A DNA stretch of 64,000 bases from an uncultured Planctomycetota bacterium (GCA_963849325.1 CAWKHF010000005.1:96001-160000), one strand, 5' to 3'. Positions 2,881 through 64,000 are shown, counted from the stretch's first letter. A program made the numbers and translations. The notes: a model not told the origin generated them from the letters alone.

Positions 2881-3853
2881 ATGATTCACGTCGAGAACTT
2901 GAGCAAGTATTTCGGCCCCGTCATGGCCGTCAACAACGTCAGCTTTCAGGTCGAAGCCAACGAGATCGTCGGCCTGCTCGGCAACAACGGCGCCGGCAAG
3001 ACGACCATCATGCGCATCCTGACCACGTATCTGCCGGCCTCCAGCGGCATCGCGCGCGTGGCCGGCTTCGACGTCATGACGCAGTCGATGGAAGTGCGCC
3101 GCCGCGTCGGCTATCTGCCCGAGAGCATCCCCCTTTATCCCGAGATGCGCGTCGAGGAATACCTGTCCTACCGGGCCAAGCTCAAGGGCGTCGAACGCCG
3201 AAAGCGGCCGCAGCGCATCGCCTACTGCCTGGAGCGCTGCCGCGTGCGCGAGGTACAGCGCCGCCTGGTCGGCACGCTGTCCAAGGGCTATCGTCAGCGC
3301 GTCGGCTTGGCCGACGCCATGATTAACGATCCGCCCATCCTGATCCTCGACGAGCCGACCGACGGCCTGGACCCCGGCCAGAAGGCCGAGACGCTCGGCA
3401 TGCTCCGCGAACTGGGGCAGGACCACACGATCATGTTGTCGTCGCACATGCTCAGCGAGGTCGAGACGCTGGTGCAGCGCGTCATCATCATTCGCCGCGG
3501 ACACCTGGGGTTGGCCAAGAAGCTGTCCGAGCTGGAGACCGACGACGTCATCGTCGTCGAGGTGCGCGGCCCGGTCGATCAGGTGGCGGTGGCCCTGCGC
3601 AACACCGAGGGCGTGGCCCAGGTGACGACGCGCGACAGCGACGACGGCGTGACGCTGTTCGAGGTGCGCACGCACCAGCTCGAAGGATCTGCGCGAGCAG
3701 ATCTCGCAGCGGTTGGCCAAGAACGGTTGGCCGATCCGTCGTCTCGATCTGCGGCGGCGCAGCCTGCAAGACCGCTGGGACGAAATCAACAACTGGGCCG
3801 ACGTCGAGTCGCCCGCCAAGCCCGCCGGCAGCAACACGGCCGTGACGGTATGA
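2881..3853 (+). CDS. ABC transporter ATP-binding protein (GldA-like); frameshift near 3685
   Basis: Walker A GNNGAGKTT, signature LSKGYRQRVGLA, Walker B ILILDEPT, H-loop SSH. The C-terminus continues in another frame to TGA 3851-3853. Confidence 0.92.
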
Positions 3854-3904
3854 GCCGCTTGTGGCTTCGCGCGAACCGCAAGCAGCCCCTGTGAGGATGC
3901 CACC

Positions 3905-5489
3905 ATGTCCAGCAAGGCGATCACCCAACCCCAAGGCCCGCGTCCCGGCGGCGACTGGCAGTCGCGCCAGGAAACGGCGCCGTCGGTCCTCCGCAGCGAC
4001 GATCCCGGGTTCGCGCGCGTCGTCGGCATGATCGGAGCGGCCAGCGTCATCTTCGGCGGTATGGCCCTGATCCTGCAAGGCACCGGCCGCATCACGCCCT
4101 TGGGCACTGGCTGGTCAAGCTTCCTGCTGGCCGCCGGCGTCGCCGGGCTGCTGTTCCACGCCGCCTTCGATTGGGACCTGCAATTTCGCCGCCTGTACAT
4201 GCTGTTCGGCTCCGTCGTCGTCATCGTCGGCGTCTTCCTCGCCGTCGTGCCCTACAACGGCCAGATGGGTTCGCTGTTCGGCCACGGCTTTTTGTGCCTG
4301 CTGCTGGGTCTGTTGTTCCTGCTGGCCTTCCTGCGCAACGAGACCGACGCCTGGATGCGGCGATCCGTGTACAACGCCCTGGGCATCCTGGGCGGACTGA
4401 TGGCCGTCGTCGGCCTGGTCGGCGGCAACGTCAAGGGCGAGTTCCTGACGCCCATCGGTCTGCTGCTGTCGGTGCTCGGCCTCATCTACGCGACCGCCTA
4501 CGTCGCCGGCGTCGGCGTCAGCGATGACCGCGGCTACCGCGCCGGCCTGGGCCTCGGCGTCCTCGGAGTCCTTGTCTTCGTCGTCGCCCTGGGCCGCTCC
4601 GCTCTGCCGCCGTTGTTCTACCGCTGGCACTGGACGCAAAACCAGCCGGCCGACTACCTCGTCCCTTACGGCCTGCTGCTGATGGCCCTGGGGCTGCTCT
4701 ACGTTTGCGTGTCGCTGCTGTTGTGCTCGGATTGGACCCTGATCGTGTTGACGCGACGCGAACTCGGCTCGATGTTCTATTCGCCCATCGCCTACATCGT
4801 GCTGTTCGTCTTCGTCATTGCGCACTGGTGGGCGTACTTCTGGGTGCTGTCGGGCATGTTGCTCAGCGAGGCGTCGTCGCCGGAGCCGATTGTCAGCAAC
4901 TTCATTTTGCAGTGGTCCGCCGTCATCAGCACCATTGTCGTCATCCCCGTGCTGACGATGCGGCTGTTGAGCGAGGAGAAGCGCGCGGGCACGCTGGAGG
5001 TGCTGCTGACGGCGCCGGTCGATGAGGGGGCGGTAGTGATCAGCAAGTTCCTGGCCGCCTGCGTCATGTTCCTGACCATGTGGGTGCCGTTCGGCCTGTT
5101 TTTGGTGTACCTGCGCCTGGGCGGCGGCTCGGAGTTCGACTATCGGCCTCTGTTCAGCTTTACCATCGGCCTGGCGGTGACGTCGGCGGCGTTCGTCAGC
5201 ATGGGCGTATTCTTCTCCAGCCTGACGCGCAGCCAGGTCGCCAGCGGCGTGCTGACCTTCGCCGGCATGTTGTCGTTGACGCTGCTGTTCCTGGTCGGCG
5301 GCATGCTCAGTCGCTTCATGGCCTCCAGCGCCTGGGTGACGGTGCTCAAGCACCTGTCCTACATCGACGTGTGGATCGACACGCTGGATGGCCGGCTGCA
5401 TGCCGCGGCAGCTGATTTTCTTCGCGTCCATGACGGTGGTTTGGCTGTTCTTGAGCGTCAAGGTGCTGGAAGCGCGAAAATGGACGTGA
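3905..5489 (+). CDS. ABC-2 type permease (GldF-like) with long extra N-terminal multi-TM region; frameshift near 5400
   Basis: RRELGSMFYSPIAY and TMRLLSEEKRAGTLEVLLTAPV..VVISKFLA motifs with many hydrophobic helices. The shifted frame ends LEARKWT. Confidence 0.88.
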
Positions 5490-5502
5490 GCTAAGTTCCT
5501 CG

Positions 5503-5572
5503 AACCGGCGAGCGGGGGGCGTCAGCCCCCTGTTGGCAACAAACAGGGGGCTGACGCCCCCGCTCGCCAGTT
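5503..5572. repeat. REP-like palindrome (GGCGAGCGGGGGGCGTCAGCCCCCTG arms)
   Basis: Near-perfect inverted repeat between the permease and the GldG-like gene. Confidence 0.8.
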
Positions 5573-5595
5573 GAGGCGTCGTGAGGAGTGGAATC

Positions 5596-7726
5596 ATGTC
5601 GAGCATTCCATCGACAACGAATACAGGTGACGTCTACGAACGCCTGGCGGCCAAGCGGCAGACAATCGCCTACGCGCTGATCGTCGCCGGCATCGCGCTG
5701 GCGGCCATCCCCATCACCAACGTGGCCCTGTATCGCTGGCAGTCACTGGCGGTCTTCCTCTGGGGGGCCGGACTGTCGCTGTTCGTCCTCCTGGCGGGTG
5801 TGATCTACCTCGTGCTGGAGACGACCGGCAGCCGCCGCGACGAGGCGGACCGTCTGCGCGTCACCGTGCTTATCGTGCTGGGCGGCGTTGGCCTGCTGAC
5901 GGCCCTGCTGGGTTTGCTGCTGCCGTTCGCGTCGCCGCCGTTCGCCTTGACCAACTACCCGGACATCTTCGCCGGCGGCGTGCGCAAGTGGCGCGAACGC
6001 GACAACGCCCTGGCCCTGACTCGCTGCGGCGCGGCGCTCCTCGGCGGCCTGGTCCTGATGTTCGTCGGACTGATCCAGGCCCGCACCTTCGAGCGCACCC
6101 GCCCCAACCTGCGCCGCCTGCTCTACGGCTACAACGCCATCCTCACCAGTCTGCTGCTCGTCCTCATCGTCATTCTCGTCAACCTGCTGCCCTATTCGGG
6201 CGTTCGGCCGTTCAGCTACGCCAACGAGTCGATCGACTGGACGCGCGCCGGCATCCACACGCTGCACCCGGCGACGAAGAACCTGCTGGCCGAGCTGAAG
6301 CAGCCCGTCAAGGTGTACGTGCTCGGCTCGGCCAACGATCGCGTCATGTTCGAGATGACGGCGCTGCTGGAGAAGTGCCGGGCCATCGATCCGCAACTGA
6401 GCTGGGAGCAGGTCTCGCGCGACCGCAACCGCGACCGCCATGCTGCGAGCTGATGCGAGAAGTACAGCGTCCCCGAGAGCGAGGGCGTGCTCGTCGTCTA
6501 CGGGCCGGCCGGGAACGAGGTCCACGAGTTCATCAAGAGCAGCGACCTGTTCGAGACGAACATGGCCGACCCGGCCGGGCCAACGCTTCACCTTCAAGGG
6601 CGAGAACGCCCTGCTCAACGCGCTGACCTTCCTGTCCGCGGGCAAGACGAAGGCCGACGGTCTACTTCACGCAGGGCAACGGCGAACTGGCGTTCAACGA
6701 TCGCAGCGCCGACCGCATCGACGTGGGCATGGGTCTGCTGATCGACGAGCTGGGCCGCGTCAACTACCAGACGCGCGAGCTGGACCGTGACGGCGGACAC
6801 GGACAAGATGCCCGAGGACGCCGACATCGTTGTCGATCGCTCGGCCGCGCGAGGAGGTGCCGGCCAAGTTCGTCGACCGCCCTGCGCGACTACCTGCAGC
6901 GGCACCAATCGCAAGGACAAGAAGAAGGGCAAGCTGATCGTGCTGTTCGACGTGGTGCAGCGCGGCGGCAAGGGGCCGATGGTGCGCACCGGGCTGGAGG
7001 CGCTGGTGGCCGAGCAAGGCGTCCGCGTCGGCGACAACCGGGTGCTCGATCCGTCGAGCCGCCGCGATCCCCTGGCCCTGACCGTCATCGCCGACCCGCG
7101 CAGCAAGAACCCGATCGCCCGCGCCTTCTCCAACGAGGCTGAGGGATCGTCGCTGTTTTTGCTTCTACCAGGCCCGGACCGTGGAGCCGGCGCAAGCGAA
7201 CCCGCCCGGCGCGCCGGCGCCGTCCGGCCGACAACCTGATCATCACCTTCCCGGTACAGCGCGGTCCTGGTCGATGACGGACCTGAACGTCCCGCCGCGC
7301 GCCCTGATCGAGGAGTTGATGACGCGATCCGCGAGAAGATCAACGAAAAGTTGAGCCCGCACGCCGCGTGCCGTTGGCCGTGACGGTCGCCGAGGGCAAG
7401 ACGCAGGCGCCGCCGATCCCCGGCCACGATTTCATGGCCAAGGAGGGCCAGCCGCGCCTGGTGGTCTTCGGCGACGCCAGCTGGATCTCCAATCCGCTGC
7501 TTCAGCAGGCCGCTCCGAACCATTTCAACCTGTTCGCCAGCTCGTCTGTCGTGGCTGGCGGAACGAGCCGGACATCGGCAACCGCGTACCGCCGACGCAG
7601 CATGATCTGTATCGCCTCAAGGCGCCGCCCGGCAGCGGCGGCCGTCTGCTGTTTCTGCCCGGTTTCCTTCTGATGCTGGGCGTGCTGGCCCTGGGCGTCG
7701 GCGTCTGGGTGGTGCGGCGGCGCTGA
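5596..7726 (+). CDS. GldG-like ABC auxiliary component; several frameshifts
   Basis: IDWTRAGIHTLHPATKNLLAEL, then YFTQGNGEL, PRLVVFGDASWISN and a C-terminal TM helix ending WVVRRR, pieced across frames. Confidence 0.8.
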
Positions 7727-23117: not shown

Positions 23118-24562
<1,445 letters not shown>

Positions 24563-33467: not shown

Positions 33468-33543
33468 CGGGGCGTAGCGCAGCCTGGCCTAGCGCGTCTG
33501 CTTTGGGAGCAGAAAGTCGTGGGTTCGAATCCCACCGCCCCGA
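33468..33543 (+). tRNA. tRNA-Pro (anticodon TGG), CCA not encoded
   Basis: Acceptor stem CGGGGCG/CGCCCCG, anticodon stem TCTGC/GCAGA with loop TTTGGGA, T-arm GTGGG-TTCGAAT-CCCAC. Confidence 0.97.
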
Positions 33544-34130: not shown

Positions 34131-37100
34131 TTACGAGCTGGGCTGCTGCTGCAACAGCATGAAGAACGTTTCGACGCCGAAGATCTCCGCCTCCGGGGCC
34201 AACGATCCGGCGTACTGCGAGTTGAACGCGATGTCCGACTGTACCGCGCCGGTGGGCTGCCCGGTCACCAGGTCCAGCGCCAACATGAACCCGTCGAAGA
34301 AAATCGAGTACACGGCTTGGAGCTGGCTCGGCCCCGGACCCAGCGGTATCGGCGGCGGTGTGGGCGTCGGTGTTGGCGTCGGTGTCGGTGTCGGTGTCGG
34401 TGTGGGCGTTGGAGTGGGTGTCGGCGTGGGCGTCGGCGTCGGCGTGGGCGTCGGCGTACTGGTCGTGACGGTTAGCTGCCCGTTCGCGGTCTGGGCCAGG
34501 AAGTTGTTGCTGGGGCTGTCCGAGTACGTTTCCTGGATGGTATACGTGCCCGCGGCCACGTTCGCTTGCAGGATCAACGTCGCGGAAGCCAGGCCGCTGT
34601 TCACGTTGGCCGTCACCGGGCCGCCCAACACGTTGCTGTTTTGGTCGAGCACGGTGAACGTCACGGTGCCCTCGTTGACCGTTCCCTGGCTGGAGGAGAC
34701 CGTCGCACTGACCGACACGCTCTGGGATGTCGTGCTGGTGGGGACCGGAGTGACGGGGTTGGGCGTGAGGGTGACCGCGCTGGCGCTGATGCTCAGGGTC
34801 CCGACGGCGGTCTGGTCCTGCACGCTCTTGGTGGTGGTGTCGGTGAACTTCTCCAGAATGCTATACGTCCCCAGCGGCTGGCCGGCCGGGACGGTCAGGG
34901 TGCCGGTCGCCGTGCCGTTGGACACGTTGATCGGTCCGGTGCTGGCCAACGTGTTGTTGTTGCTATCGACCAGGGTGAAGGTCACGCCGCCCTCGTTGAC
35001 GGCCTGGCCGTTGGAGTTGGTGACCTTGGCCGTGACATTCACGGTCTGGGACGACAGGCTAAAGGGAACGGCGGCGTTGCCGGCCACGATGGTGTCGGTC
35101 CCCTGGTTGACGCTCAGTGTGCCGTAGGAACGTCACATTCTGGAAGTCGCCGCTGGCATCCTTGTAGGCTTCCTGGATGGTGTAGGCGCCGGGAGCCAGC
35201 CCGGCCGGCACCGTGTAGGTGGCGCTGGCTGCGCCGTTGGCGACCGTCGAACTGGTGACGGCCTGACCGATCGGGTTGCCACTGCTGTCCACCACGGTGA
35301 AGGTGACGTTGCCCTCGTTGATGGTGCCGGCGGGGCTGCTGAGGGTGATGTTGATCGGCACCGTCTGCGCGGACGTGCTATAGGGGACGGCGGCATTTTC
35401 GGGCGGCATGGTGACGAGGCCGCCGAGGACCGTCACCGGCGTCAGGGCCGTGGCGATGGTGACGTTGCTGGGAGGACCACCCACGCCGCCGAGTCCGCCG
35501 ATGTTGTAGATGGCCTCGACGTTATAGCTGCCCGGCGGCAGGTCGTTGATCGTGGTCGGCAGGGGAATCGAGCCGGTCGCCAAGCCGCCGGACGTGATGG
35601 GGACCGTCACCAACGTGTTGGCGATCGGATTGTGCAACGCGCTGTTATCGGTCAGCAGGAACGACACCGAACGAACCGTATTGGGATCGCCGGCGAGCTG
35701 GGAGGCGACCGTGGTGCTGTCGTCGGGGTTGGTAATGACCACCGAGACCGGCTCCGTCAGCGTCGTGCCGACGACAATGGTGGGCAGCGTCGCGGGCGCG
35801 AAGGCGAACGCATAGCCGCCGGCCACCGGCTGGAGCTGGTAGGCGCCGAGGTCGTCGTTGACGGCGGGGTTGCCGCTGCCCGTGGGCCGGGGCACGCCGC
35901 GCTGGTCCTGGCTGGTGGCGTTGCTGCCCTTGCCGATGATGTAGGTGGCGTCGGTGGTGTTGGTGTTCGTCGTGGGGATGGTGTAAGTGGGGCCGCCGTA
36001 GTTGCCCGGAGCCGTGAGGTCAAAGGGGTCGCCGTTGGTCACGCCCACGTAGTCGGTGGCGGCGCCGGTGGTGATGGTGCCGGCCAGGTCGGCCGAGGTG
36101 AAGGCGTTGTTTTGCGAAATGATGGAGTCGGTCACGGTGTTGCTGCCGCCGACCAGAAAGACGCCACCGCCGGTGGTGGTCCCGTTCGCGCCAGGGAGAC
36201 CGGATTGAGCTTTGCTGCCACCGCCGGGACGGCCGCCGATTCCGCCGATTCCGCCTACGGTGTTGTTGCCGGCGACCGTGAGGTTGAGGAAGGTGTTGGT
36301 GCCGCTGACGACGTTGATGCCTCCGGCCGTACCGTTGCCGCCGTTGCCGCCGTTGCCGCCGTTGCCGTTGCCCGCGCCGGTGGATTCCGGATTGGGAAAA
36401 GTCGGGGACCAGCCGCCACCGCCGGTGGCGGTGTTCTGGGCCACCGTGGTGCTGCTGACGGTCAGGGAGGCGTCGTTGGCGACGTAGAAGCCGCCGGCGG
36501 TGGCGTTGCCGCCGTTGCCGTTGCGGCCGCCGTCGGCGTTTTTGCCCCGGGCGTTGCTGCCCCAGCCACCCAGGCCGCCGCGCGCCTGATTGCCGAAGTT
36601 GAGGGGGTCGGGGCCGATCTCGCTGGCGCGCAAGGTCATGGTGCCCGAGCCGGTCAGGAAGACGCCGCCGCCCTGGCCGTCGCCGCCGTTGCCGCCGGCG
36701 CCGACAAGGCCCGTGGTGGCGCCCGGGCCCGCGTCGCCGCCGGCGCCGCCCTGAGCGACGTTGCCGGAGACGGACACGGCGACGAGGTTCACCGTGCCGC
36801 CGTTCAACCAAATGCCGCCGCCCTCGGCCTTGCCGCCGGGGGCGCCGTTGACGTTGACGGAGGTGAAGCCGTTGCCGCCCTCGCCGCCGGTGGCCGTATT
36901 GCCCGTGACCTCCAGCAGAGGGGTATTGAGCGTATCGACGTTAAAGTTGGGGGACAGGGCCGAGCCGGGTACGGCCGGCACGAGCGGCGATTTGGGAGCG
37001 ACATTGGTGTAGACGCTGGAGCCGAACGAGGCCAGTCCGCCGCCTTCGCCGATGCCGCCGCCCGTGGACGTGAGGCCCGGTTTTTTTTTGGCATTGAAGC

Positions 37101-37770
37101 CCAGCCCGCCCGTCGCGCTGTTGTTCTCCAGCGTTACATTGTCCAAGGTGAGCGTGCCGTTGAAAGTGAAAATCCCACCGCCGGCCGCGTTGCCGCCGTT
37201 CTGGAGGGCGCCTTTGGCCGTCGGCGTGCCATTGACGCCGGTGGCGTTGTTGTTCTCGAAAAGGTCGTTGCTGAGCGTCACGTTGCCATCGTCGTTGAGC
37301 AGGCCGCCGCCCAGGGCCGAAAAGCCGGCCAGCCCCAGCCCGCCTTCGTCGCCCGCCTTGCCGCCGCGGATGTTGAGGTTCTCCAGCACCACGTTGCTGC
37401 CGGGACCCACCTGAAAGATCCGCGACAGGCCCGTCTCGTTAATGGTCGTGCCCGGTCCGCCGCTGGCCGACAACTGACCCTGGATGATGATGGTATCCGT
37501 GGGGTTATCGATGACCAGCGGAGCTGAGGACGTTGTCAGCGTGATGACATTATTGGTTGCGAACGTGATCGTGAATGTGCCGCTGCTGTCGGCATTGGCC
37601 TGCTGGATCGCGGCGCACAGCGTGCCGGCACCCGAGTCGGCCGTACTGTTGACCGTGGCGCTGTTGCCCGAGGGCGTGATACGATCTTCCAGCACCTCCA
37701 GCAGAGGACGAAAGTAACGGGTTTTCCAGGGATTGTACGACTGAGGACGGCGCCGAGATAAGGGAAGCAT
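34131..37770 (-). CDS. G0: divergent surface protein (leader, Gly-rich passenger, anchor-Q-like domain, Ig-like repeats, short PT stalk, C-terminal module); frameshift near 35130
   Basis: LEVLEDRITPS leader, GGxGG repeats, DQRG..DLGAYQ, three Ig-like repeats with NEGxVTFT..YxIxExY/F, (PT)n, then FDGF..VQSDIA..AG..EIFG. Confidence 0.85.
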
Positions 37771-38117
37771 GACTAACCCTCAAGAGAGTTCAATCAGGAA
37801 GTGAACCTATTATTACCTGAGTTGCCCCATTAGTCGAGACCTCTTAACCGATTCTTTCCCTAGAATTGTGCTGTTCAGCTCGTGTTTCCCAGTCATCACA
37901 TCCGCTCCGAATGATAGTGAACGGATCGACACTTCTGCTACTCCGTTCCTCACTCCGCCATCGTCAGGACGCGAAGAACGCCCGGAAAAGACGCGAGAAT
38001 GGTTCCGAGAGACGGATTCAAAGTGTGATACGTGCGATCGCGCTGGTGTTTCCTTTTATTTACTCTTTTCTTCTCTTGCTCTTTTCTTGGCGTGTTGGCG
38101 GTTTGGACGGGCGAAGA

Positions 38118-38173
38118 GGCCCGCGGGCGAAATCGCCCGCGGGCCGAGAGTGACCGTAAAGGGTCGAGAGCAA
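38118..38173 (-). promoter_or_regulatory. conserved post-stop hairpin element, copy after G1
   Basis: GGCCCGCGGGCG-aaat-CGCCCGCGGGCC at 38118-38145, 28 nt from the stop codon. Confidence 0.85.
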
Positions 38174-41100
38174 TTAGTGGTTGTTGTTGCCCCCTCCACT
38201 GGAACTGCCGCCGTTGGAACTGCTGCTAGTGGAATGGTTGAGGATGTTGAGGGCCAGTTCGACGCCGAGCAGTTCGAAGAACTGCCCGAACGGTCCGGCG
38301 GCCTGCAGGTTGACGGCGATGTCGGCTTGCACCAGCGAGCCTGCCGCCGAGTTTCCGGTCAGGATGTCGAACACAACGTCAAAGCCGTCGAAGATCAGCT
38401 GCAACTCCGGATTGGCAGCTGGCATGGGCGTCGGCGTCGGCGTCGGCGTGGGAGTGGGAGTGGGCGTCGGGGTCGGAGTGGGCGTCGGCGTCGGAGTGGG
38501 TGTCGGGGTGGGCGTCGGCGTCGGAGTGGGTGTCGGGGTGGGCGTCGGCGTCGGAGTGGGCGTCGGCGTGGGAGTCGGAGTGGGCGTCGGCGTGGGCGTC
38601 GGGGTTGGGGTCGGCGTCGGAGTGGGCGTCGGCGTGGGAGTCGGAGTGGGCGTCGGCGTGGGCGTCGGGGTTGGGGTCGGCGTCGGAGTGGGCGTCGGCG
38701 TGGGAGTCGGAGTGGGCGTCGGCGTGGGCGTCGGGGTTGGGGTCGGCGTCGGAGTGGGCGTCGGCGTCGGCGTCGGTGTTGGGGTCGGAGTTGGGGTCGG
38801 CGTCGGCGTCGGAGTGGGCGTCGGCGTCGGCGTCGGTGTCGGAGTCGGTGTCGGTGTCGGAGTGGGCGTGGGACTGAATTCGGTGGCGCCGATGTCGATG
38901 ATGGCACCCTTGCCGCCGTTGATGACACGCGGGAAGCCCGTGCCACGCTGATCGAACGGACCCGTCAATGCCGTCGCCGCGTTGTCACCCGCATCGATGC
39001 CCGGACTGCCCGACTGCAACAGGATGGTCTGCGTCAGACCACCGTTGTTGCCCAGCGTGCCAATGCCCGCGGCCACGTTGGTGATGTCGCCGTGCGCCGA
39101 GCTGAAGCCGAAGCTGCCGGCGGAGTTGCCGATCAGGTTGTGGTCGCTGCTGTTGACCGAACCGAAGTAATCCGGCGACGAGGCGGCGTTGTTGAGCGCC
39201 ACCAGCGTGTTGGTGAGGATGACGTTGGCATTGGCGTTGTTGAAGACGCCGCCGCCCTGGCCGACGACGGCGCCGCCCGCCGTGCCCGGCGTGCCCGGCT
39301 TGCCGCCCACGCCCGGAGGCGCGCCGGCATCGCCGCCGTTGCCGCCGAAGCCCTGCAACGCCGAGTTGTAAGCGACGGTGACGTTGGTCAGCGTGACGCC
39401 GCCGGTGCCGGGTGTTACCAGCACGAAGACGCCGCCGCCCTTGACGGCACCGCTGTTGCCGCCGGCGCCGCCGCTGCCGGCCGTGCCTTCCGTGGCCGAG
39501 CCACCCGTGCCGCCATTGCCGCCGTTGCCCGCCGTGGCGGTGTTGTTGGACATGGTCGAGTTGGTCAGTTGCGTCTGACCCGAGCCGAACAGGTACGCAC
39601 CGGCACCCTCGGCGATGCCGCCGGCGCCGCCGGTACCGCCGGCGCCGCCGACACCACCGTTGCCGCCGTTGCCGCCGTTGCCACCGACGCCGCCGGTGAC
39701 GGAGTTACCCGACAACGTCGAGTCGAAGATCTTGCTGGGCTGGCCGGTGCCGCTGTTGGTGACGTAGACGCCGCCGCCGTAGGCCGAGCCGCCGATGCCG
39801 CCGCCGCCCGCGCCGCTGCCCAGACCGAACCCGATCGAGGCACCCGCGCCGCCGTTGCCGCCGGCGCCGGCGGTGCTGAGGTTGCCCGTGACGGACGTGT
39901 TGGTGATGCTCAACTGCAACGTGGTCCCGGCCGCCCCGAAGAAGTCCACGCCGCCGCCGAACGTGCTGCCGCCGAAGCCGCCCTTGCCGCCCAGAGCGCC
40001 GGCCGAGTTGCTGGCGCCGCCGGTGCCGCCGGCGCCGCCGACATCGATGTTACCCGTGACGGTAGACTGATCGACGGACACCTTGAGGGTGCTGGCGCCG
40101 ACACTAAAGCCGCCGATGCCGCCGCCGCCGCCCGAGGCGCCCGAGCCGCCGACGCCGCCGCCGCTGGTCGCACCGCCGCCGGTCCCACCAGCGCCACCGT
40201 TACCGCCGGCGCCGCCGGTGACCGTGTTGGTTTGCACGGTCGTGCCCGCATTGACCGCCACGTTGAGAGTGGCGCCGCCCGTGGCCAACGCTTCGATGCC
40301 GCCACCGAAGCCAAAGCCACCCGTGCCGCCGACGCCGCCGCCGGAGCCGGCGCCGCTGAGTCCATTGCCTCCCGCTCCACCAGCCCCGCCCGTCACCGTG
40401 TTGCTCGACACCGTGCTAGCATTGCCCGTCGAGGTGGACTTGCCCACCGTCACGCTGCCGCCGCCGCTGAGGAACACGCCGCCGCCCTGCGCCGTACCGC
40501 CCGTGCCGCCGCCGCCGCCCTTGGCGCCGGCCGCCGTGGCCGCGAAGCCCTGGCCGCCCAGGCCGCCCTGGGCCGAGTTGCCCGTCACCGTCACGCCGGT
40601 CAGGCTCAACTGCATGGTGGCGCCGCTGACGTACAAGCCGCCGCCCTGCGCCCACCGCCGATCTGGCCGGCGATGCTGGTCTTGTTGCCGTTGGCTCCGC
40701 TGCCGCCGATCGCCTTGTTACCCGTGATCGAGCTGGCGTCCAGCGTTATCGAGTTGGAGGCCGCGGTGATGAGGACGCCGCCGCCCTCGCCGAAGCCGGC
40801 CGCCGCCCCGCCCGCGACGCCGTTGCCGCCCAGCGCCTGGTTGTTGCTGATGACCGTGCCGTTGACAACGGTCAACTGACCGCCGGAGACGAAGACGCCG
40901 CCGCCCTCGCCGTCCTTGCCGGCGTTGCCGACCGCCTTGTTGTTCTGCACGACGGCGTTGCTCAGCGTCACGTTGCCGCCCAGGTCGAGGATGGCACCGC
41001 CCCGCGCCTCCGTGTTCGTGGTCACGCCGTTGTCGTGGGCCGTGCCGTGCTGGAGGGTCAACGACTGGAAGGTCACGTTGGTCGGGCCGGTCAGCAGGAA

Positions 41101-41442
41101 GGCGCGGTTGTTGGCGCCGGCGGCGTCGAGGACAACGTCGCCGGCCTTGCCGGTGGCGCCCTGGATGACCAGCGTGTGCGGCGTCGTCACCGTCAACTGG
41201 CTGGACAGGTTGTAGGTGCCCGCCGACAGGACGATGGTGTTGGTCGCGTCGGAGGCCGGAGCGTTGACGGCGTTGATGGCCTGCTGGAGTTGCGTGGCGT
41301 TGCTGACGTCGAAGACCGCTGGCGCCAGACGCTCTTCCAGCGATTCCAGTCGCGGCAAGACCGTGCGTCGTGCCGGGGACCGCTGCACGCGGCCCTTCTG
41401 GCCCGGACTCGTGAACTTGCGGAGCCATTTGTTGCGAAGCAT
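38174..41442 (-). CDS. G1: Gly-rich surface protein paralog; frameshift near 40650
   Basis: ORFs 40606-41442 and 38174-40636 join into the full paralog: [48 protein letters not shown], (PT)n and C-terminal module. Confidence 0.9.
38426..38873 (-). repeat. (Pro-Thr)n hexamer repeat in G1; equivalent tracts at about 34359-34458, 41813-42320, 48197-48563, 51464-51898, 54789-55074, 57955-58376 and 61618-62007
   Basis: ACN-CCN hexamers with variable third positions, in frame in every gene. Confidence 0.95.
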
Positions 41443-41495
41443 AAGACACCTCCAGGATCAGGGGAATATGGGACAACACGTTACTGCGTCGAGAT

Positions 41496-41551
41496 GGCCC
41501 GCGGGCGGGTTCGCCCGCGGGCCGAGGGTTACAGTAAGGGGCCGAGAGCAT
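41496..41551 (-). promoter_or_regulatory. conserved post-stop hairpin element, copy after G2
   Basis: Hairpin 41496-41523 plus GAGGGTTACAGTAAGGGGCCGA. Confidence 0.85.
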
Positions 41552-44500
41552 TTAGTGGCTGTGGCCGTTGCTGGTGCTGCTACTGCTGCTGGTGCTGCTG
41601 GTGCTGCCGGTGCTGCTGGTGTTGTGGCTGAAGAGGTTGAGGGCCAACTGGATACCGAACAGCTCGAAGAACGGTCCGAACGGTCCAGCCGCCGCCAGGT
41701 TGACAGCGATGTCGCCCTGAATGGCGATTACCGCAGCCTGGTTGCCGATCAGGAAGTTGAACGCCAAGCTGAAGCCGTCGATGACCAACTGCAACGCTGG
41801 ATTGGCCGCCGCTGTCGGAGTGGGCGTCGGCGTCGGTGTCGGAGTGGGCGTCGGCGTCGGTGTCGGAGTGGGTGTCGGCGTCGGAGTTGGAGTGGGCGTC
41901 GGCGTCGGCGTCGGCGTCGGAGTTGGAGTGGGCGTCGGTGTCGGAGTGGGCGTCGGCGTCGGAGTTGGAGTGGGCGTCGGAGTGGGAGTGGGCGTCGGCG
42001 TCGGCGTCGGAGTTGGAGTGGGCGTCGGTGTCGGAGTGGGTGTCGGTGTCGGTGTCGGAGTGGGCGTCGGAGTTGGGGTTGGAGTGGGCGTCGGCGTCGG
42101 CGTCGGCGTCGGAGTTGGAGTGGGCGTCGGTGTCGGAGTGGGCGTCGGCGTTGGAGTGGGCGTCGGTGTCGGAGTGGGCGTCGGCGTCGGAGTGGGCGTC
42201 GGAGTGGGCGTCGGAGTGGGCGTCGGTGTGGGCGTCGGCGTCGGCGTTGGAGTGGGCGTCGGCGTTGGAGTGGGCGTCGGTGTCGGAGTGGGCGTCGGAG
42301 TGGGCGTCGGAGTGGGCGTGGAGCTGAACTCGGTGGCGCCGATGTCGATGATGGCACCCTTGCCGCCATTGAGGACACGCGGGAAGCCGGTGCCACGCTG
42401 ATCGAACGGACCCGTCAATGCCGTCGCCGCATTGTCCCCGGCGTCGATGGCCGGACTGCCGGCCAGCAGCAGGATCGTCTGCGTCAGACCGCCGTTGGCC
42501 GCCAGCGTGCCGATCAGCGGAGCGACGTTGAGGATGTCGCCGTGGGCCGAGCTGAAGCCGAAGCTGCCGCTGGCGTTGCCGATCAGGTTGTGGTCGCTGC
42601 TGTTGACCGAACCGAAGTAATCGGGAGCCAAGGCGGCGTTGTTGAGCGCCACCAAGGTGTTGGTCAGGATGGTATTGGCGTTGGCGTGGTTGTAGACGCC
42701 GCCGCCCGAACCGGCCACGGCGCCGCCGGCGGTGCCCGGCGTGCCGGGGAAGCCACCGACGCCCGGAGGCGCACCGGCGCCGCCGCCGCTGCCGCCGAAA
42801 CCCTGCACCGCGGAGTTGTAGGCGACGGTGACGTTGGTCAGCGTGATGCCGCCGGTGGCGGGCGTGGCCGAGACGTAGACGCCGCCGCCGATGACGATGC
42901 CGCTGTTGCCGCCGTTGCCGCCGTTGCCGGCGGTGCCGGTGCTCGCCGCTCCGCCGGTGCCACCGCTGCCGCCGTTGCCGGCGGTGGAGGTGTTGTTGGC
43001 CACCGTCGAGTTGGTCAGCTGCGTCTGACCGGAGCCGAACGAGAAGACGCCGCCGCCATCGCCGGCGCCGCCGGTGCCGCCATTGCCGCCGTTGCCGCCG
43101 TTGCCGCCGTTGCCGCCGTTGCCCCCAGCGCCGCCGGCGCCGCCGGTGGCGGAGTTGCCCGACACCGTCGAGTCGAAGAGCTTGCTGGCGGCGCCGGTGC
43201 CACTGTTGCTGAGACCGAGGCCGCCTCCCACGGCCACGCCGCCGGTGCCGCCGGCGCCGGCATTGCCGCCGGTGACGACCCCGACCGAAGCGCCGCGCCG
43301 CCGTTGCCGCCGGCGCCGGCCGTGATGCTGTTGCCGCTGACGGTGGTGCTGGTGATGCTGAACTGCGAGGTGGTGCCGGCGATGCCGAAAAAGGCTATGC
43401 CGCCGGAGATGGCGGTGCCGCCGGTGCCGCCCAGACCACCGAGGGCGCCCACCGAGTTGCTGGCGCCGCCGGTGCCGCCGGCGCCGGCCGTGACGCTGTT
43501 GCCGCTGACGGTGGACTGATCGACGCTCAACTGGATGGTGCCGGTCGGGTTGACACTCTCGGCCCGGATGCCGCCCGATTCGGCCCCACCGCCCTTGCCG
43601 CCGACGCCGCCCACGGAGCTGGTAGTGCCGGCGCTGCCGCCGGCGCCGCCGGCGCCGCCGACGCCGCCGGTGACGGTGTTGCCCTGCACGGTCGTCCCCG
43701 CGCCGACCGCCAGTTTCAGGGTCCCTCCCGTCGCCAGACCCTCGATACCGCCGCCGAAGGCGACGCCGCCGACGCCGCCCTTGCCGCCGGCCGAGCCGGC
43801 GCCGCTCATTCCGTTGCCTCCCGCTCCGCCGGCCCCGCCGACGACGAAGTTGCCCGACACGGTGGTTCCGTTGCCGGTCGAGCCAGACTTGCCGACGGTC
43901 ACGTTTCCGGTCCCGCTGATGAAGACGCCACCGCCCTGGGCCGTGTTGCCGGTGCCGCCGCCGGCGCCGCCGGCCTTGCCGGCCGCCGTGGCCGCGAAGC
44001 CCTGTCCGGCCTGTCCGCCCTGGACCGTGTTGCCCGTCAGCGTCACGCCGGTCAGGCCCAACACGATGTTGGTGCCGCTGACCCACATACCGCCGCCGTC
44101 GGCGAAGCCGCCGGGCTGGCCGGCGATGCTCGTCTTGGTACCGTTGGCGCCGCTGCCGCCGACCGCCTTGTTGCCGGTGATCGAGCTGGCGTCCAGCGAC
44201 ACCGGATTGGTGGTGCCCGAGACGTACGCGCCGCCGCCCTCGGCGAAGCCGGCTTGCACGCTGCCCGTGATGCCGTTACCGCCCAGCGCCTGGTTGCCGC
44301 TGATGACCGCGCCGTTGAGCACGGTCAACTGTCCGCCGGAGACGAACACGCCGCCACCCTTGGCCGCCAGGCCGGCGTTGGCGACGGCTTTGTTGTTCTG
44401 CACGACGGCATTGCTCAGCGTCACGTTGCCGCCCATGTCCAGGATGGCGCCGCCCTCGGCCGTCGTGTTGATGGCCACGCCGTTGTCGTGGGCCGTGCCA

Positions 44501-44892
44501 TGCTGGATGGTCAAGGACTGGAACGTCACGTTGGTGCCCGGATCGAGCAGGAAGGCGCGGTTGTTGGCACCGGCGGCGTCGAGGACAACGTCGCCGGCCT
44601 TGCCGGTGGCGCCCTGGATGACCAGCGTGTGCGGCGTCGTCACCGTCAACTGGTTGGACAGGTTGTAGGTGCCCGCCGACAGGACGATGGTGTTGGTCGC
44701 GTCGGAGGCCGGAGCGTTGACGGCGTTGATGGCCTGCTGGAGTTGGGTGGCGTTGCTGACGTCGAAGACCGCTGGCGCCAGACGCTCTTCCAGCGATTCC
44801 AGTCGCGGCAAGACCGTGCGTCGTGCCGAGGACCGCTGGGGACGGCCCTTACTCCGTCCCGCGAACTTGCGAAGCCATTCGTTGTGAAACAT
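41552..44892 (-). CDS. G2: Gly-rich surface protein paralog; frameshift near 43295
   Basis: Start MFHNEWLRK after GGAGGAG; the two ORF halves align to the intact paralogs. Confidence 0.9.
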
Positions 44893-44947
44893 GAGACTCC
44901 TCCACCACTGAGAGAATCGGGATGGAAACACAGTGCTGCACCGAGGT

Positions 44948-45002
44948 GGCCCGCGAGCGGGTTCGCCCGCGGACCGAGGGTTACAGTAGGAGGCCGGCGA
45001 TG
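44948..45002 (-). promoter_or_regulatory. conserved hairpin element, copy between G3 and G2
   Basis: Hairpin 44948-44975 plus GAGGGTTACAGTAGGAGGCC. Confidence 0.85.
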
Positions 45003-45157
45003 TCACGCGCCGCCTTCCGCTTTCGATGATGTCCGGCCGGCGAAGGGTTCGGATAACCCGTCGCTTGTGCTCCGGACTTGTCACTAGCCCGGAGCGCCAG
45101 CGACGGGTCGAAGAATCCCATCGCTGGCGCTGGGGCTAGTGAGTTGGGAAACCGATT

Positions 45158-47692
<2,535 letters not shown>

Positions 47693-47745
47693 GGAGACCT
47701 CCACACTGAGAGAAACGGGATAGAAACACGATGTTGCGTCAAGGT

Positions 47746-47801
47746 GGCCCGCGGGCGAACCCGTCCGCGGGCTGAGGATTACTGTTAAGGGGCCAAGAGC
47801 C
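47746..47801 (-). promoter_or_regulatory. conserved post-stop hairpin element, copy after G4
   Basis: Hairpin 47746-47773 (loop aacc) plus GAGGATTACTGTTAAGGGGCCAA. Confidence 0.85.
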
Positions 47802-47804
47802 TTA

Positions 47805-47950
47805 GAATCTGTCCCCTAAGCTCTCCTCTCCCCCGCTTCGAGGGAGAGGGGTTGGGGGTGAGGGAGACAGAATCCCACGAAAAACCTAACCCTGCACCCC
47901 AACCCCTCTCCCCCGGAGTACAGGGGGAGAGGGGCTTATGGGACAGTCTC
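47805..47950. mobile_element. 146-bp MITE-like insertion with 16-bp TIRs and TTA target duplication
   Basis: Left end GAATCTGTCCCCTAAG, right end (reverse complement) GAGACTGTCCCATAAG, 13/16 match. Flanked by TTA at 47802-47804 and 47951-47953. Absent from the other spacer copies. Confidence 0.8.
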
Positions 47951-51121
<3,171 letters not shown>

Positions 51122-51175
51122 GCGAGACCTCCAAATGAAGAGAATCGGAATGGGAACGTGATGTTGCGTTGAGGT

Positions 51176-51231
51176 GGCCCGCGGGCGAAGCCGCCCGCGG
51201 GCCGAGGGTTACAGTAAGAGGGCCGACAGCA
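51176..51231 (-). promoter_or_regulatory. conserved post-stop hairpin element, copy after G5
   Basis: Hairpin 51176-51203 plus GAGGGTTACAGTAAGAGGGCCGA. Confidence 0.85.
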
Positions 51232-54474
<3,243 letters not shown>

Positions 54475-54528
54475 GCGAGACCTCCAAACTGAGGAAAACA
54501 GGATAGAAACACGTTACTGCGTCGAGGT

Positions 54529-54584
54529 GGCCCGCGGGCGGGTTCGCCCGCGGACCAAGGGTTACAGTTCGAGGGCCGACGGCA
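54529..54584 (-). promoter_or_regulatory. conserved post-stop hairpin element, copy after G6
   Basis: Hairpin 54529-54556 plus AAGGGTTACAGTTCGAGGGCCGA. Confidence 0.85.
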
Positions 54585-57650
<3,066 letters not shown>

Positions 57651-57694
57651 GAGGCTCCTTCACCACTGAGCGAAACAGGATGCTGCGTCGAGGT

Positions 57695-57750
57695 GGCCCG
57701 CGGGCGGGTTTGCCCGCGGGCCGAGGGTTACCGTTCGAGGGCCGACGACG
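57695..57750 (-). promoter_or_regulatory. conserved post-stop hairpin element, copy after G7
   Basis: Hairpin 57695-57722 plus GAGGGTTACCGTTCGAGGGCCGA. Confidence 0.85.
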
Positions 57751-60953
<3,203 letters not shown>

Positions 60954-61293
60954 GAGACTCCTCCACATCCGAGGGAAACGAAAGGAGACCAGGGGGTCCG
61001 TCCCGCGCGAACGGGGAGACACTCCCCGCGCCGCCGTCAGGGCCGCAACCAGCTCTGTCAGCCCCACTTCTCCACCTCCCCATAAAGGGGAGAAGGGAGA
61101 GCGGATACATCCGTGTGGAGGAGGACGGAATCGAGCCGCTCCGTCCGGAGAACATCCTGTTCACTTCTCGATGTCGAAATGCACGCCGTTCCGAGGAACT
61201 CACGGACGGCGCCCGTTTCCTTCCTTCCTTGCCAGGAACGGAGAATGAACCGGGTGCCTGCCCCGCATCCTGCTCGGGCGGCGCGGAGATCCG

Positions 61294-61349
61294 GGTCCGC
61301 GGGCGAAATCGCCCGCGGACCGAGGATTACAGTAAAGGTGCCAAGAGCG
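61294..61349 (-). promoter_or_regulatory. conserved post-stop hairpin element, copy after G8
   Basis: GGTCCGCGGGCG-aaat-CGCCCGCGGACC at 61294-61321, with a compensatory T-A pair. Confidence 0.85.
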
Positions 61350-64000
61350 TTAGTGGGTGCCGTTGCCAACACCGACGTTGCTTCCGCCCCCGCCGGAACT
61401 GGTGCTCCCGCCGCTCGTGCTGGTGTTGTGCGCGAAGGCGTTGATGGCCAGTTCGATGCCGAACAGCTCGAAGAACGGTCCGAACGGTCCGGCCGCCGGT
61501 AGGTTGACGGCGATGTCGGCCTGCACGCCGGCCGCCCCGGTCTGATTGCCGGTCAGCAGGTCGAGCACGAGGCTGAAACCGTCGAAGACCAACTGCAACG
61601 CCGGATTGGCCGCCACCGTCGGAGTGGGCGTCGGTGTCGGTGTCGGCGTTGGAGTGGGCGTTGGAGTGGGCGTCGGCGTCGGCGTTGGAGTCGGCGTGGG
61701 CGTTGGGGTTGGCGTCGGCGTCGGTGTTGGGGTCGGCGTCGGCGTCGGAGTGGGCGTCGGTGTTGGAGTTGGAGTTGGAGTCGGCGTCGGTGTCGGCGTC
61801 GGCGTCGGCGTTGGGGTCGGCGTCGGCGTCGGTGTTGGGGTCGGCGTCGGCGTTGGGGTCGGCGTCGGCGTTGGGGTCGGCGTCGGAGTGGGCGTCGGTG
61901 TTGGAGTTGGGGTCGGCGTCGGCGTCGGTGTTGGGGTCGGCGTCGGTGTTGGAGTCGGTGTCGGAGTGGGCGTGGGCGTGGGCGTGGGCGTGGGCGTTGG
62001 AGTGGGACTGAACTCGGTGGCGCCGATGTCGATGGTGGCACTCTTGCCGCCGTTGATGACTCGCGGGAAGCCGGTGCCACGCTGATCGAACGGACCCGTC
62101 AGGGCCGTCGCCGCGTTGTCACCCGCATCGATGCCAGGGCTGCCGGACAGGAGCAGGATGGTCTGTGTCAGACCACCGTTGTTGCCCAGCGTGCCAATGC
62201 CCGCGGCCACGTTGAGGATATCGCCGTGGGCCGTGCTGAAGCCGAAGCTGCCGGTGGCATTGCCGATCAGGTCGTGGTCGCTGCTGTTGACCGAACCGAA
62301 GTAATCGGCGGCAGAGGCCGCGTTGTTCAGCGCCACCAGCGTGTTGGTGAGGATGACGTTGGCGTTGGCATTGTTGAAGACGCCGCCGCCCTGGCCGGCC
62401 ACGGCCCCGCCGGCGGTGCCCGGCGTGCCCGGTGTGCCACCCACTCCCGGAGGCGCGCCGGCGTCGCCGCCGTTGCCGCCGAAGCCTTGGAGCGCCGCGT
62501 TGTAAGCGACGGTGACGTTGGTCAAGGTGACACCGCCGGTTCCGGGCGTGACCAGCACGAAGAGGCCGCCGCCCTTGACGGCGCCGCTGTTGCCGCCGTT
62601 GCCGCCGTTGCCGGCGGTGCTGGCGGTGGCCGAGCCACCCGTGCCGCCGTTGCCGCCGTTGCCGGCGGTGGCCGTGTTGGTGGACACGGTCGAGTTGGTC
62701 AGTTGCGTCTGACCCGAGCCGAACAGGAACGTGCCGGCACCCTCGGCGGAGCCGCCGATGCCGCCGCCGCCGCCCTTGCCACCGGCCTTGCCGTTGCCGC
62801 CGTTGCCGCCCGTGCCGCCGGCCCCGCCGGTGACGGAGTTGCCCGACAACGTCGAATCGAAGATCTTACTCGCCTGGCCGGTGCCGCTGTTGGTGACGAA
62901 GACGCCGCCGCCGTGGGCAAAGCCGCCCGCGCCGCCGACGCTACCGCCGCTGCCCAGGCCGGCCGCGGCCGTGGCCCCCGCACCGCCGTTGCCGCCGGCG
63001 CCGCCGGTGACGCTGTTGCCCGTGACGGACGTGTTCGTGATGGCGAACGACGAAGGCGTGCCGCCGACCGGGAAATAGTCGATGCCGCCGGCGAAGGTGT
63101 CGCCGCCGTCGCCGCCGGTGCCGCCCAGAGCGCCGGCCGTGTTGCTGGCGCCGCCGACGCCGCCGGCACCGCCGACGACCATGTTGCCCTGGACGGTAGA
63201 ACTGCCGAGCGTGAACTTTACCGTGCCGAAACCGTTGATGGCGATGCCGCCGGTGTCGCCCGTGCCGCCGGTGCCGCCGCCGCCGCCCGTGGTAATCAGC
63301 GTGCCGCCGGTGCCGCCAGCACCGCCGGCGCCGCCGGCGCCGCCCGTGGCCGAGTTCGTGTCCACCTGGGTGCCGGAGGTCACGTTGACGGTGAGCGTGT
63401 CTCCGCCTTTGGCCAAGGCATTGATGCCGGCGCCGAGCACGCCGCCGCCGTGGCCGCCGCTGCCGCCCGTCGAGCCGCCGCCACTCAGTCCGTTGCCTCC
63501 CGCTCCGCCGGCCCCGCCGATGACGAAGTTGCTCGACACCACGGTGGCGTTGCTGGTCGAGGTGGACGTGCCGACGGTCACGGTGCCGCCGCCGGTAATG
63601 AACACGCCACCGCCATGTGCCGAACCGCCGGTGCCGCCGCCGCCGCCGGACTTGCCGGCCGCCGTCGCCGCGAAGCCCTGTCCGGCCAGGCCGCCCTGGG
63701 CCGTGTTCCCTGTCAGCGTCACGCCGGTCAGGCTCAGCGACATGGTGGCGCTGCTGATCCACAGACCGCCGCCGTTGGCCGTCCCGCCGGCCTGACCCGT
63801 CGTACTGGTCTTGGTGCCGTTGGCGCCATTGCCGCCGATGGCCTTGTTGCCGGTAATCGAGCTGGCGTCCAGGGTCTGCGGATTGCTGGTGCCGACGATG
63901 AAGACGCCGCCGCCCTCGGCACTGCCGGCCAGCGCCCCGCCGGAGACACCGTTGCCGCCGACAGCCTGGTTGTTGCTAATGACCGTGCCGTTGACGACGG
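61350..64000 (-). CDS. G8: Gly-rich surface protein paralog, 5' end outside the window
   Basis: Frame is open to the window edge ([17 protein letters not shown]..); same anchor-Q-like domain, PT stalk and C-terminal module. Confidence 0.92.

Follow-up and report, generated by a model that had tools for sequence, protein, structure and literature searches.

A tandem array of nine genes for stalked beta-helix proteins, a putative surface-display family, in an uncultured Gemmataceae planctomycete

A row of nine related genes for large, glycine-rich proteins in an uncultured planctomycete raises the question of what such proteins do, and of which of their parts might take them to the cell surface and hold them there. 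The genes lie in a stretch of 64,000 nucleotides (GCA_963849325.1 CAWKHF010000005.1:96001-160000; 'the window' below), which is positions 96001-160000 of contig C5 in a genome of 8.16 Mb, 14 contigs and 65% GC; positions given without a contig are counted from the first letter of the window. Stop-to-stop frames, GC content at third codon positions (GC3) and translations place all nine, co-oriented, on the minus strand at 34131-64568. The 5' end of the array is 568 nt past the window, where the leader of the first copy, A, sits. The original prediction of co-oriented tandem paralogs was confirmed on these grounds, and its 'at least nine' genes became exactly nine, other genes lying upstream of A. 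GC3 values of 0.85-0.90 favour the minus-strand frames, and we rejected the long plus-strand open reading frames (ORFs) as antisense artefacts of GGC/CCG-rich coding. Of the leader motif LE.LE.R the window has eight instances, all on the minus strand, none on the plus strand, and each about 35 residues past an ATG.

Read from 5' to 3', the genes are A (61350-64568, with 61350-64000 inside the window; 1072 aa, intact and complete in the genome), B (57751-60953), C (54585-57650; 1021 aa, intact), D (51232-54474; 1080 aa, intact, the reference copy for fold and searches), E (47951-51121; 1056 aa, intact), F (45158-47692; 844 aa), G (41552-44892), H (38174-41442) and G0 (34131-37770). Protein identity to D is 79% for A, 86-90% for B, 67% for C, 77% for E, 64% for F, 73-80% for G, 86-88% for H and 28% for G0; the eight close copies, A to H, are 70-87% identical in DNA and G0 is a distant paralog. 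The spacers from A to G0 measure, in order, 396, 100, 110, 110, 258, 265, 109 and 403 nt, so that the earlier description of genes mostly about 110 nt apart fits four of the eight (100-110 nt) and not the others. The repeated [TS]x[VI]xxNxxxGG units reported before are real: in the form [TS]x[VIL]xxNx(2-5)GG they number 5-7 per copy, compared with 0.35-0.51 in shuffled sequences (shuffle maximum 3). The nine-gene tandem array is a genuine chromosomal feature in the long-read assembly of this uncultured Gemmataceae planctomycete. We propose that it encodes a family of surface-displayed beta-helix proteins of one plan, namely leader, head, Pro-Thr (PT) stalk and C-terminal module, with sulfotransferases encoded upstream that modify the cargo, and with the frameshifts of some copies being assembly errors; taken as a whole, we hold this account to be moderately probable. 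The likely role, judged from the sequences, would be that of a coat on the cell surface, adhesive or protective and made up of many variants.

The leader of D (residues 1-45; 54340-54474, minus strand) is rich in Arg and Lys and has no hydrophobic core; it ends in an 11-residue string ([11 protein letters not shown]), and the structural model shows it as disordered. Across the leaders, Kyte-Doolittle means over 12 residues peak at 0.63-0.86 (0.86 in D), meaning that no hydrophobic stretch is present. The core LExLExRxxP is found in all eight leaders of the window; the published 12-mer has an additional Lx at its start, to which there is no exact match. The string M[FL][RH]N[EK]WLRK..LE[SA]LEERLAPA and its counterpart in G0, LEVLEDRITPS, could be read in the translations as they had been given. 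Genome-wide, the motif with at least 300 residues downstream occurs in 46 ORFs, about 44 of which carry it near the start after an Arg-rich stretch. In Tuwongella immobilis, another member of the Gemmataceae, LxLExLExRxxP is reported on 52 genes as a putative cell-surface export signal; 20 of the 52 proteins were detected by proteomics and eight occurred in the SDS-soluble fraction only, and the motif is described there, after Studholme 2004, as a planctomycete-specific cell-surface export signal (Seeger et al., PMC8567305, in the parts compared). The array proteins resemble these planctomycete RRLxxExLExRxLLA / LxLExLExRxxP proteins in being large and repetitive, with LExLExRxxP after an Arg-rich N-terminus (Studholme 2004, cited in PMC8567305; PF07595), and in occurring by the dozen, with about 44 here versus 52 in T. 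immobilis. They differ in that the array leaders fall below the PF07595 threshold. This model (Planc_extracel) gave no match at E<=10 on four array leaders, and in a search of the whole genome its best score was 18.9 bits, under the 25.5 cut-off, at other genes and none in the array. The NCBIfam leader models, LEPR-XLL included, likewise gave no match at E<=10 on the four leaders or at E<=0.1 on whole proteins. The assignment to the planctomycete LExLExR motif therefore stands for the core, as in PMC8567305, but not for the PF07595 and LEPR-XLL hidden Markov models (HMMs). The compared parts of that paper mention neither a C-terminal module, nor a tandem array, nor a pairing with sulfotransferases, and terms for beta-helices do not occur in two of its supplementary files.

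Behind the leader, an AlphaFold2 model of D (pLDDT 86.8, pTM 0.87) predicts a right-handed parallel beta-helix with Gly-rich loops from residue 41 to about 810, some 770 residues (52045-54354, minus strand). On this prediction the fold is of the pectate-lyase-like class. Structural comparison with VIA-align gave Z scores of 20.7 for the tailspike 7eea (rmsd 3.0, 432 residues aligned), 19.3 for the Vag8 passenger 7akv, 17.7 for AlgE4 and 16.1 for pertactin 2iou, with Z>=8 for 356 of 426 chains and a range of 43-824 in the D model; Foldseek returned six chains at E<=0.001, the best at E 1.4e-5. The body of D is 26.7% Gly. In its model (51898-54474) Gly-rich stretches of 19-25 residues between the strands are modelled with high confidence, and one Foldseek match is to the polyproline-II-bundle antifreeze protein 7jjv (probability 0.97, 25% identity); the Gly runs may form a polyproline-II layer on the modelled beta-helix.

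The helix is closed by a choice-of-anchor Q domain (in D residues 794-858; 51901-52095, minus strand), as the GSPxIDAG..DQRG..DIGATEF block had been taken to indicate. NF041518 scored 58.2 bits in C, 54.0 in D, 54.1 in E and 51.7 in F against a cut-off of 25, that is, in four of the four close copies tested; G0 stays below it at 18.5, and the same motif is visible in the translations of A, B, G and H. The name choice-of-anchor implies alternative known C-terminal anchors. The array proteins share with this class the 58-residue motif at the end of the beta-helix and differ in ending in a module that has no NCBIfam or Pfam model. Copies C, D, E and F had no Pfam match at E<=0.1 in a search that covered Chlam_PMP, autotransporter, PE and RTX HemolysinCabind families. 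The suggested kinship with chlamydial Pmp proteins was thus not upheld, there being no Pmp or autotransporter HMM match and a predicted helical C-terminus; nor was that with PE-PGRS proteins, as no PE domain matched and the N-terminus is a LExLExR leader. In both cases the likeness is one of composition and fold class. Compared with autotransporter and Pmp passengers (pertactin, Vag8, Ag43, chlamydial Pmp), the array proteins would likewise present a long right-handed beta-helix head on the surface, and Pmp genes also form paralog families; unlike them, they lack a Sec signal peptide and a C-terminal beta-barrel translocator and do not match the Pmp repeat HMM. Searched against 60 family genomes, the body had no matches at E<=1e-30, a strict threshold beyond which more distant relatives exist, and a scan of genome contigs other than our own yielded two distant partial relatives only. 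Database relatives (8000 candidates scored, those sharing most words with the low-complexity query) are named choice-of-anchor Q and come from Gemmataceae metagenome bins, the best matches covering 6-31% of the query.

In D the choice-of-anchor Q domain is followed by a (PT)72 stalk (51464-51897, minus strand), whose DNA repeat is imperfect (about 83% matches) and yet encodes perfect PT dipeptides. Stalks comprise 47-84 dipeptides in the stalked close copies, with the value of 47 in C, and 16 in G0. G0 consists of leader, beta-helix, MG2/prealbumin-like Ig domains, (PT)16 stalk and C-terminal module. The proposed succession of passenger, stalk and shared C-terminal module thus holds, with varying stalk lengths, except in F, which has leader, beta-helix and choice-of-anchor Q domain but neither stalk nor module, its C-terminus being a (GH)3(DH)n tail, a His-Asp repeat unique in the genome. 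As an analogy only, the plan recalls fungal beta-helix wall adhesins (Candida Awp, Hyr/Iff-like), for which the parts consulted describe a beta-helix head, a variable Ser/Thr/Pro-rich stalk, a C-terminal anchor and, as in the array, paralog expansion (PMC8746771, bioRxiv 10.1101/2022.02.09.479577); the anchor there is glycosylphosphatidylinositol (GPI), and organisms and sequences are unrelated.

The C-terminal module of D is a 60-residue two-helix unit (51283-51462, minus strand), delimited by HMM and AlphaFold model and followed by a short variable tail of Ser, Gly and Asn. Its equivalents, on the same strand, are at 61434-61613 in A, 57775-57954 in B, 54609-54788 in C, 48014-48193 in E, 41630-41809 in G, 38240-38419 in H and 34149-34334 in G0. 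An HMM built from the eight array copies found 11 copies in the genome, the other three being two on contig C1 and one on C2, and the module sits behind different passengers: a beta-helix in the array, He_PIG Ig domains and a PD40 propeller on C1, and DUF3466/MG2 on C2. The C1 copies belong to a second co-oriented cluster (C1:494001-512000) made up of two array-family paralogs and the He_PIG Ig and PD40 propeller proteins, the latter two with PT stalk and module. A profile search of 1,835,955,588 representative proteins gave 29 matches at E<=0.001, all ending within 28 residues of the C-terminus. Fourteen of these were fetched: the seven full-length proteins all carry the leader, two start inside it, and five are N-terminally cut fragments. 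The records of eight module proteins were consulted; all are metagenome proteins, either without a name or labelled 'hypothetical'. Of 150 further genomes in the family, one, from the same genus, has the module, in a 276-aa protein of leader, Ig domain and module. An alignment of 40 sequences gave the motif P..L..DG..L..D.L...vQAsI..N.PyAGPFg..FELaG; a shorter form of the motif is DG...QAxI..NLPxAGPFGxFFELxG. The module keeps an invariant Asp and an invariant Glu (D11, E49), and the small residues G42, G45 and G52 are conserved. AlphaFold2 models the module as a helical hairpin with a pLDDT of 95.9.

Searches of structures and domain models gave no informative neighbour of the module. Foldseek gave no match to the module model at E<=0.001, VIA-align against 48,161 chains reached a best Z of 6.7, which is the noise level for helical hairpins, and the ESM Atlas had no usable match to the C-terminal 76 residues. 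Known sorting domains (PEP-CTERM, LPXTG, the C-terminal domain of type IX secretion, GlyGly-CTERM and others) did not match at the C-terminus in Pfam and NCBIfam scans of whole proteins, and isolated tails of 82 and 89 residues had no Pfam match at E<=10. A scan of metagenome contigs with the module alignment returned two loci, both discarded as false since the match is antisense to an unrelated gene. Several other leader-bearing proteins of this genome, for example those at C3:36133-43236, C12:163836-166094 and C8:77163-78848, carry tails of other kinds behind Pro-rich linkers, hydrophobic and helix-like; the module HMM, also when relaxed, found nothing beyond the 11 copies among the helical C-terminal tails of the leader proteins. 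Yet another ending is seen in a third cluster (C5:324000-352500, minus strand), in which leader-bearing, PT-stalked genes surround a TPR-sulfotransferase gene: in several of them the PT tract is followed by a short terminal PPHA[RK]HPGS tail, also present at C5:852-859 kb and C1:498 kb, which may be another C-terminal signal.

Two TPR-sulfotransferase genes stand directly before copy A on the same strand (C5:160001-180000, positions 703-2879 and 3508-5676, minus strand). Their products match PF13469 and have no signal peptide, and the stop of the nearer gene is about 135 nt before the ATG of A. The genome has six such genes at five loci, with further ones at C3:43375-45474, C4:246815-248963 and C5:334011-337169, and at four of the five loci they abut leader-bearing genes in the same orientation. 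The enzyme is present in 16 of 40 other family genomes (E<=1e-30). We inspected 20 loci from 14 other genomes, of which one ends at a contig edge and 19 could be evaluated. Seven of these (4 of the 14 genomes) have, on the strand of the enzyme gene, a leader gene whose start is 181-1375 nt downstream, and at an eighth the enzyme gene is closely preceded by the end of a leader ORF. The eight partner proteins contain 13-27% Gly and have the leader in common; their passengers differ (two choice-of-anchor Q, one GloVer choice-of-anchor repeat, two DUF4214, one FG-GAP and two without a family). Leader genes occur about once per 177 kb in our genome, and by a rough estimate the adjacency of sulfotransferase and leader genes is far above chance. 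The TPR-sulfotransferases are candidate cargo-modifying enzymes.

A Cupin_8/JmjC-type dioxygenase gene (C5:160001-180000, positions 5756-7039, plus strand) is divergent from the sulfotransferase genes. We considered it as a recurrent partner and rejected it because it is single-copy in the genome and not found at the other sulfotransferase loci. The arrangement recalls bacterial operons in which, according to the part of Iyer et al. 2010 (PMC2938197) consulted, sulfotransferases and dioxygenases are predicted to modify co-encoded secreted glycine-rich proteins: here too, sulfotransferase genes and one JmjC-type cupin gene lie beside genes for putatively exported glycine-rich proteins. Here, however, the sulfotransferases have TPR domains, the cupin is single-copy, and the partners are defined by a LExLExR leader and not by collagen-like repeats. 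The earlier statement that no transporter, sortase or recombinase is visible remains valid for the window; past position 64000 it has to be supplemented by the two sulfotransferases and the cupin.

Together, these parts suggest the following mechanism. The Arg-rich LExLExRxxP leader would direct export by the route that some 44 other large proteins of the genome take, in line with what has been published on the motif. The nearly uncharged, Gly-rich beta-helix of some 770 residues, capped by the choice-of-anchor Q domain, would be the displayed head, the (PT)47-84 linker would act as an extended stalk, and the 60-residue helical hairpin would tie the stalk to the envelope or to partner proteins. 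From the recurrent gene pairing, we suspect that the two co-oriented, cytoplasmic TPR-sulfotransferases modify leader-bearing proteins before export. The array itself may have grown by duplication of a unit consisting of gene, intergenic hairpin and ribosome-binding site, after which the copies would have been homogenised patchwise by gene conversion while under purifying selection. Taken further, leader, enzyme and module could constitute an undescribed three-part display system, in which a LExLExR export leader is combined with TPR-sulfotransferases that recognise and modify the cargo and with a transferable C-terminal helical-hairpin anchor or docking domain, the array being the main, gene-conversion-diversified cargo set; we put this wider scheme forward tentatively and think the odds are against it.

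The state and history of the copies allow two quite different readings to be weighed. An array produced by the assembler, through expansion of one or two genes by repeat mis-assembly, might be feared in a long-read, error-prone assembly of repetitive, GC-rich genes. Mis-assembly yields near-identical copies, though, and these differ by 13-30% in DNA, each with its own spacer (100-403 nt, with individual insertions) and its own stalk length. Assembly-made expansion or collapse, which the original prediction had named as a possible source of error, is therefore excluded, and we give such an origin next to no credence. Single-base changes are a different matter. The lengths of B, G and H each fall one base below a multiple of three (1-nt deletions near 59349, 43294 and 40652), the deletions of B and G occupying one and the same alignment column, and in G0, too, there is a change of frame, near 35100; the seven copies formerly counted as complete are in this sense not all so. 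With four of nine copies frameshifted, mosaic gene conversion and differing stalk lengths, the locus could be thought to serve contingency or antigenic variation, the shifted copies being silent or phase-variable and the PT tracts slipping to alter stalk length. But breaks of this kind also occur in rpoB and rpoC, essential genes that are each in four frame pieces (C1:334967-343005) and have more frameshifts per kb than the array, and we therefore read the array frameshifts as assembly errors. A DUF1501 gene (23118-24562) and one sulfotransferase gene in the flanks are also frame-split, and marker-gene completeness over the 14 contigs is 84.7%. None of the shift sites in the array is a long homopolymer or repeat tract, the DNA encoding the PT tracts has a repetitiveness of just 78-86% across copies, which works against slippage, and no recombinase is nearby. 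Nearest neighbours change along the genes, so that the copies are mosaics, and successive segments give conflicting trees with high local support (A+E 0.99; B+D 1.00; D+H 0.996 and F+G 0.99; C+F 0.945), a conflict that indicates gene conversion among copies. In the four intact copies compared, the ratio of non-synonymous to synonymous divergence (dN/dS) is 0.17-0.87, being highest in the Gly-rich coils (0.54-0.70) and lowest in the choice-of-anchor Q domain (0.21-0.30), and dS is 0.19-0.69; by these values the copies are old, stably kept paralogs under purifying selection, and there is no sign of overall positive selection. 'Variable' and 'expandable', if meant as switching, are not supported, with purifying selection in place and no recombinase or phase-variation device seen, and we consider a contingency locus very improbable. 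Consensus errors in the assembly, and not pseudogenisation, best account for the shifted frames of B, G, H and G0, and all nine genes are probably intact. Single-base errors are frequent in this assembly, and broken frames in it should not be taken as evidence of pseudogenes.

Two further readings concern the proteins. The heads might be secreted or tethered polysaccharide-active enzymes (lyases, epimerases or depolymerases), and the array a glycan-degrading battery with different specificities. The structural neighbours of the model give some reason to think so: the top Foldseek matches are PL6 alginate lyases (E 1.4e-5) and the epimerase AlgE4, VIA-align gives Z 17.9 for the lyase RbmB beside the value for AlgE4, and phage tailspike depolymerases score high too. 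Adhesin passengers (Vag8, pertactin, PfbA, SRRP) score as well as these, however, the Pfam and NCBIfam scans gave no enzyme family at E<=0.1, and the body contains only about 6.6% charged residues. In a 17-sequence family alignment the (nearly) invariant charged residues of the body are R113 and D833 only, with no conserved acidic or basic cluster, and we regard enzymatic heads as quite unlikely. The other reading sees in the module a C-terminal secretion signal of the type-1-secretion kind, or an oligomerisation or bundling domain, with the protein released or held by its leader. Such a role would suit a Gly-rich parallel beta structure without a classical N-terminal signal peptide, in which 60 conserved residues are followed by a short variable tail, and the conserved Gly, Asp and Glu positions of the module are better suited to helix packing than to lipid. 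Against it, no RTX or other Pfam repeat was detected, no type-1 secretion genes were found in the 84 kb examined, and the stalk adjoins the module, as it does in anchored surface proteins of other groups; LPXTG proteins and fungal GPI adhesins are anchored surface proteins with a stalk beside the anchor. We think this reading unlikely, though less so than enzymatic heads.

Several points nevertheless weigh against surface display on a module-anchored stalk. The maximum Kyte-Doolittle mean of the module over 19 residues is 1.26, too low for a classical membrane helix; because of this and of the invariant Asp and Glu, a lipid anchor is doubtful, and docking or oligomerisation is as likely. We take the module, from its sequence, to be an envelope-docking or bundling domain and not a lipid anchor. 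No sorting enzyme or receptor was found, and F, without stalk and module, implies that not all copies are anchored alike. Export by the leader is putative, being a published hypothesis only. The sulfotransferase is absent from 24 of the 40 family genomes searched, and is therefore not needed for export as such. Finally, B and G share their frameshift column though they are not nearest relatives there, which we attribute to a context-dependent consensus error.

Some features of the intergenic regions and flanks complete the description. A 12-bp GC-rich hairpin lies about 28 nt past the stop of D (51177-51204, minus strand), with no T tract after it, and hairpins follow all eight close copies (near 61297, 57698, 54532, 51179, 47749, 44951, 41499 and 38121); GGAGG precedes the next ATG in the array. 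As an element specific to this class of genes the hairpin was rejected, since 39 of its 47 sites in the genome lie outside the array, which has eight, and just 3 of those 39 come after an ORF with leader or PT tract; it is a dispersed element. Neither a sigma-70-like promoter nor a canonical terminator was found in 44800-64000. The spacers F-G (45085-45157) and E-F (47705-47950) hold extra palindromic inserts, which may be small mobile or REP-like elements. Downstream of the array are a tRNA-Pro gene, ParB, a Rex-like gene and FolD. The tRNA-Pro(TGG) gene (33468-33543, plus strand) is about 590 nt beyond the stop of G0, with no integrase nearby; the array stalks hold about 500 Pro codons. Beyond the sulfotransferases and the cupin, on the other side, come an aminoacyl-tRNA synthetase and an extracytoplasmic function (ECF) sigma factor.

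In the literature that we searched, on leader names, choice-of-anchor, Gemmataceae beta-helix arrays and planctomycete sulfotransferases, the array, the module and the pairing are not described; the C-terminal module and the sulfotransferase pairing are new in that sense. The locus bears on how planctomycetes export and retain their many giant surface proteins, for which the LExLExR leader has since 2004 been no more than a motif. It offers repeated cargo of about 1,000 residues, far below the usual giant motif-bearing proteins, together with a candidate anchor module small enough for fusion tests and a recurrent enzyme partner, the TPR-sulfotransferase, for which leader peptides could serve as assay substrates. 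Should the pairing prove functional, it would tie the sulfation of a protein or glycoprotein to surface display in bacteria, a rare combination.

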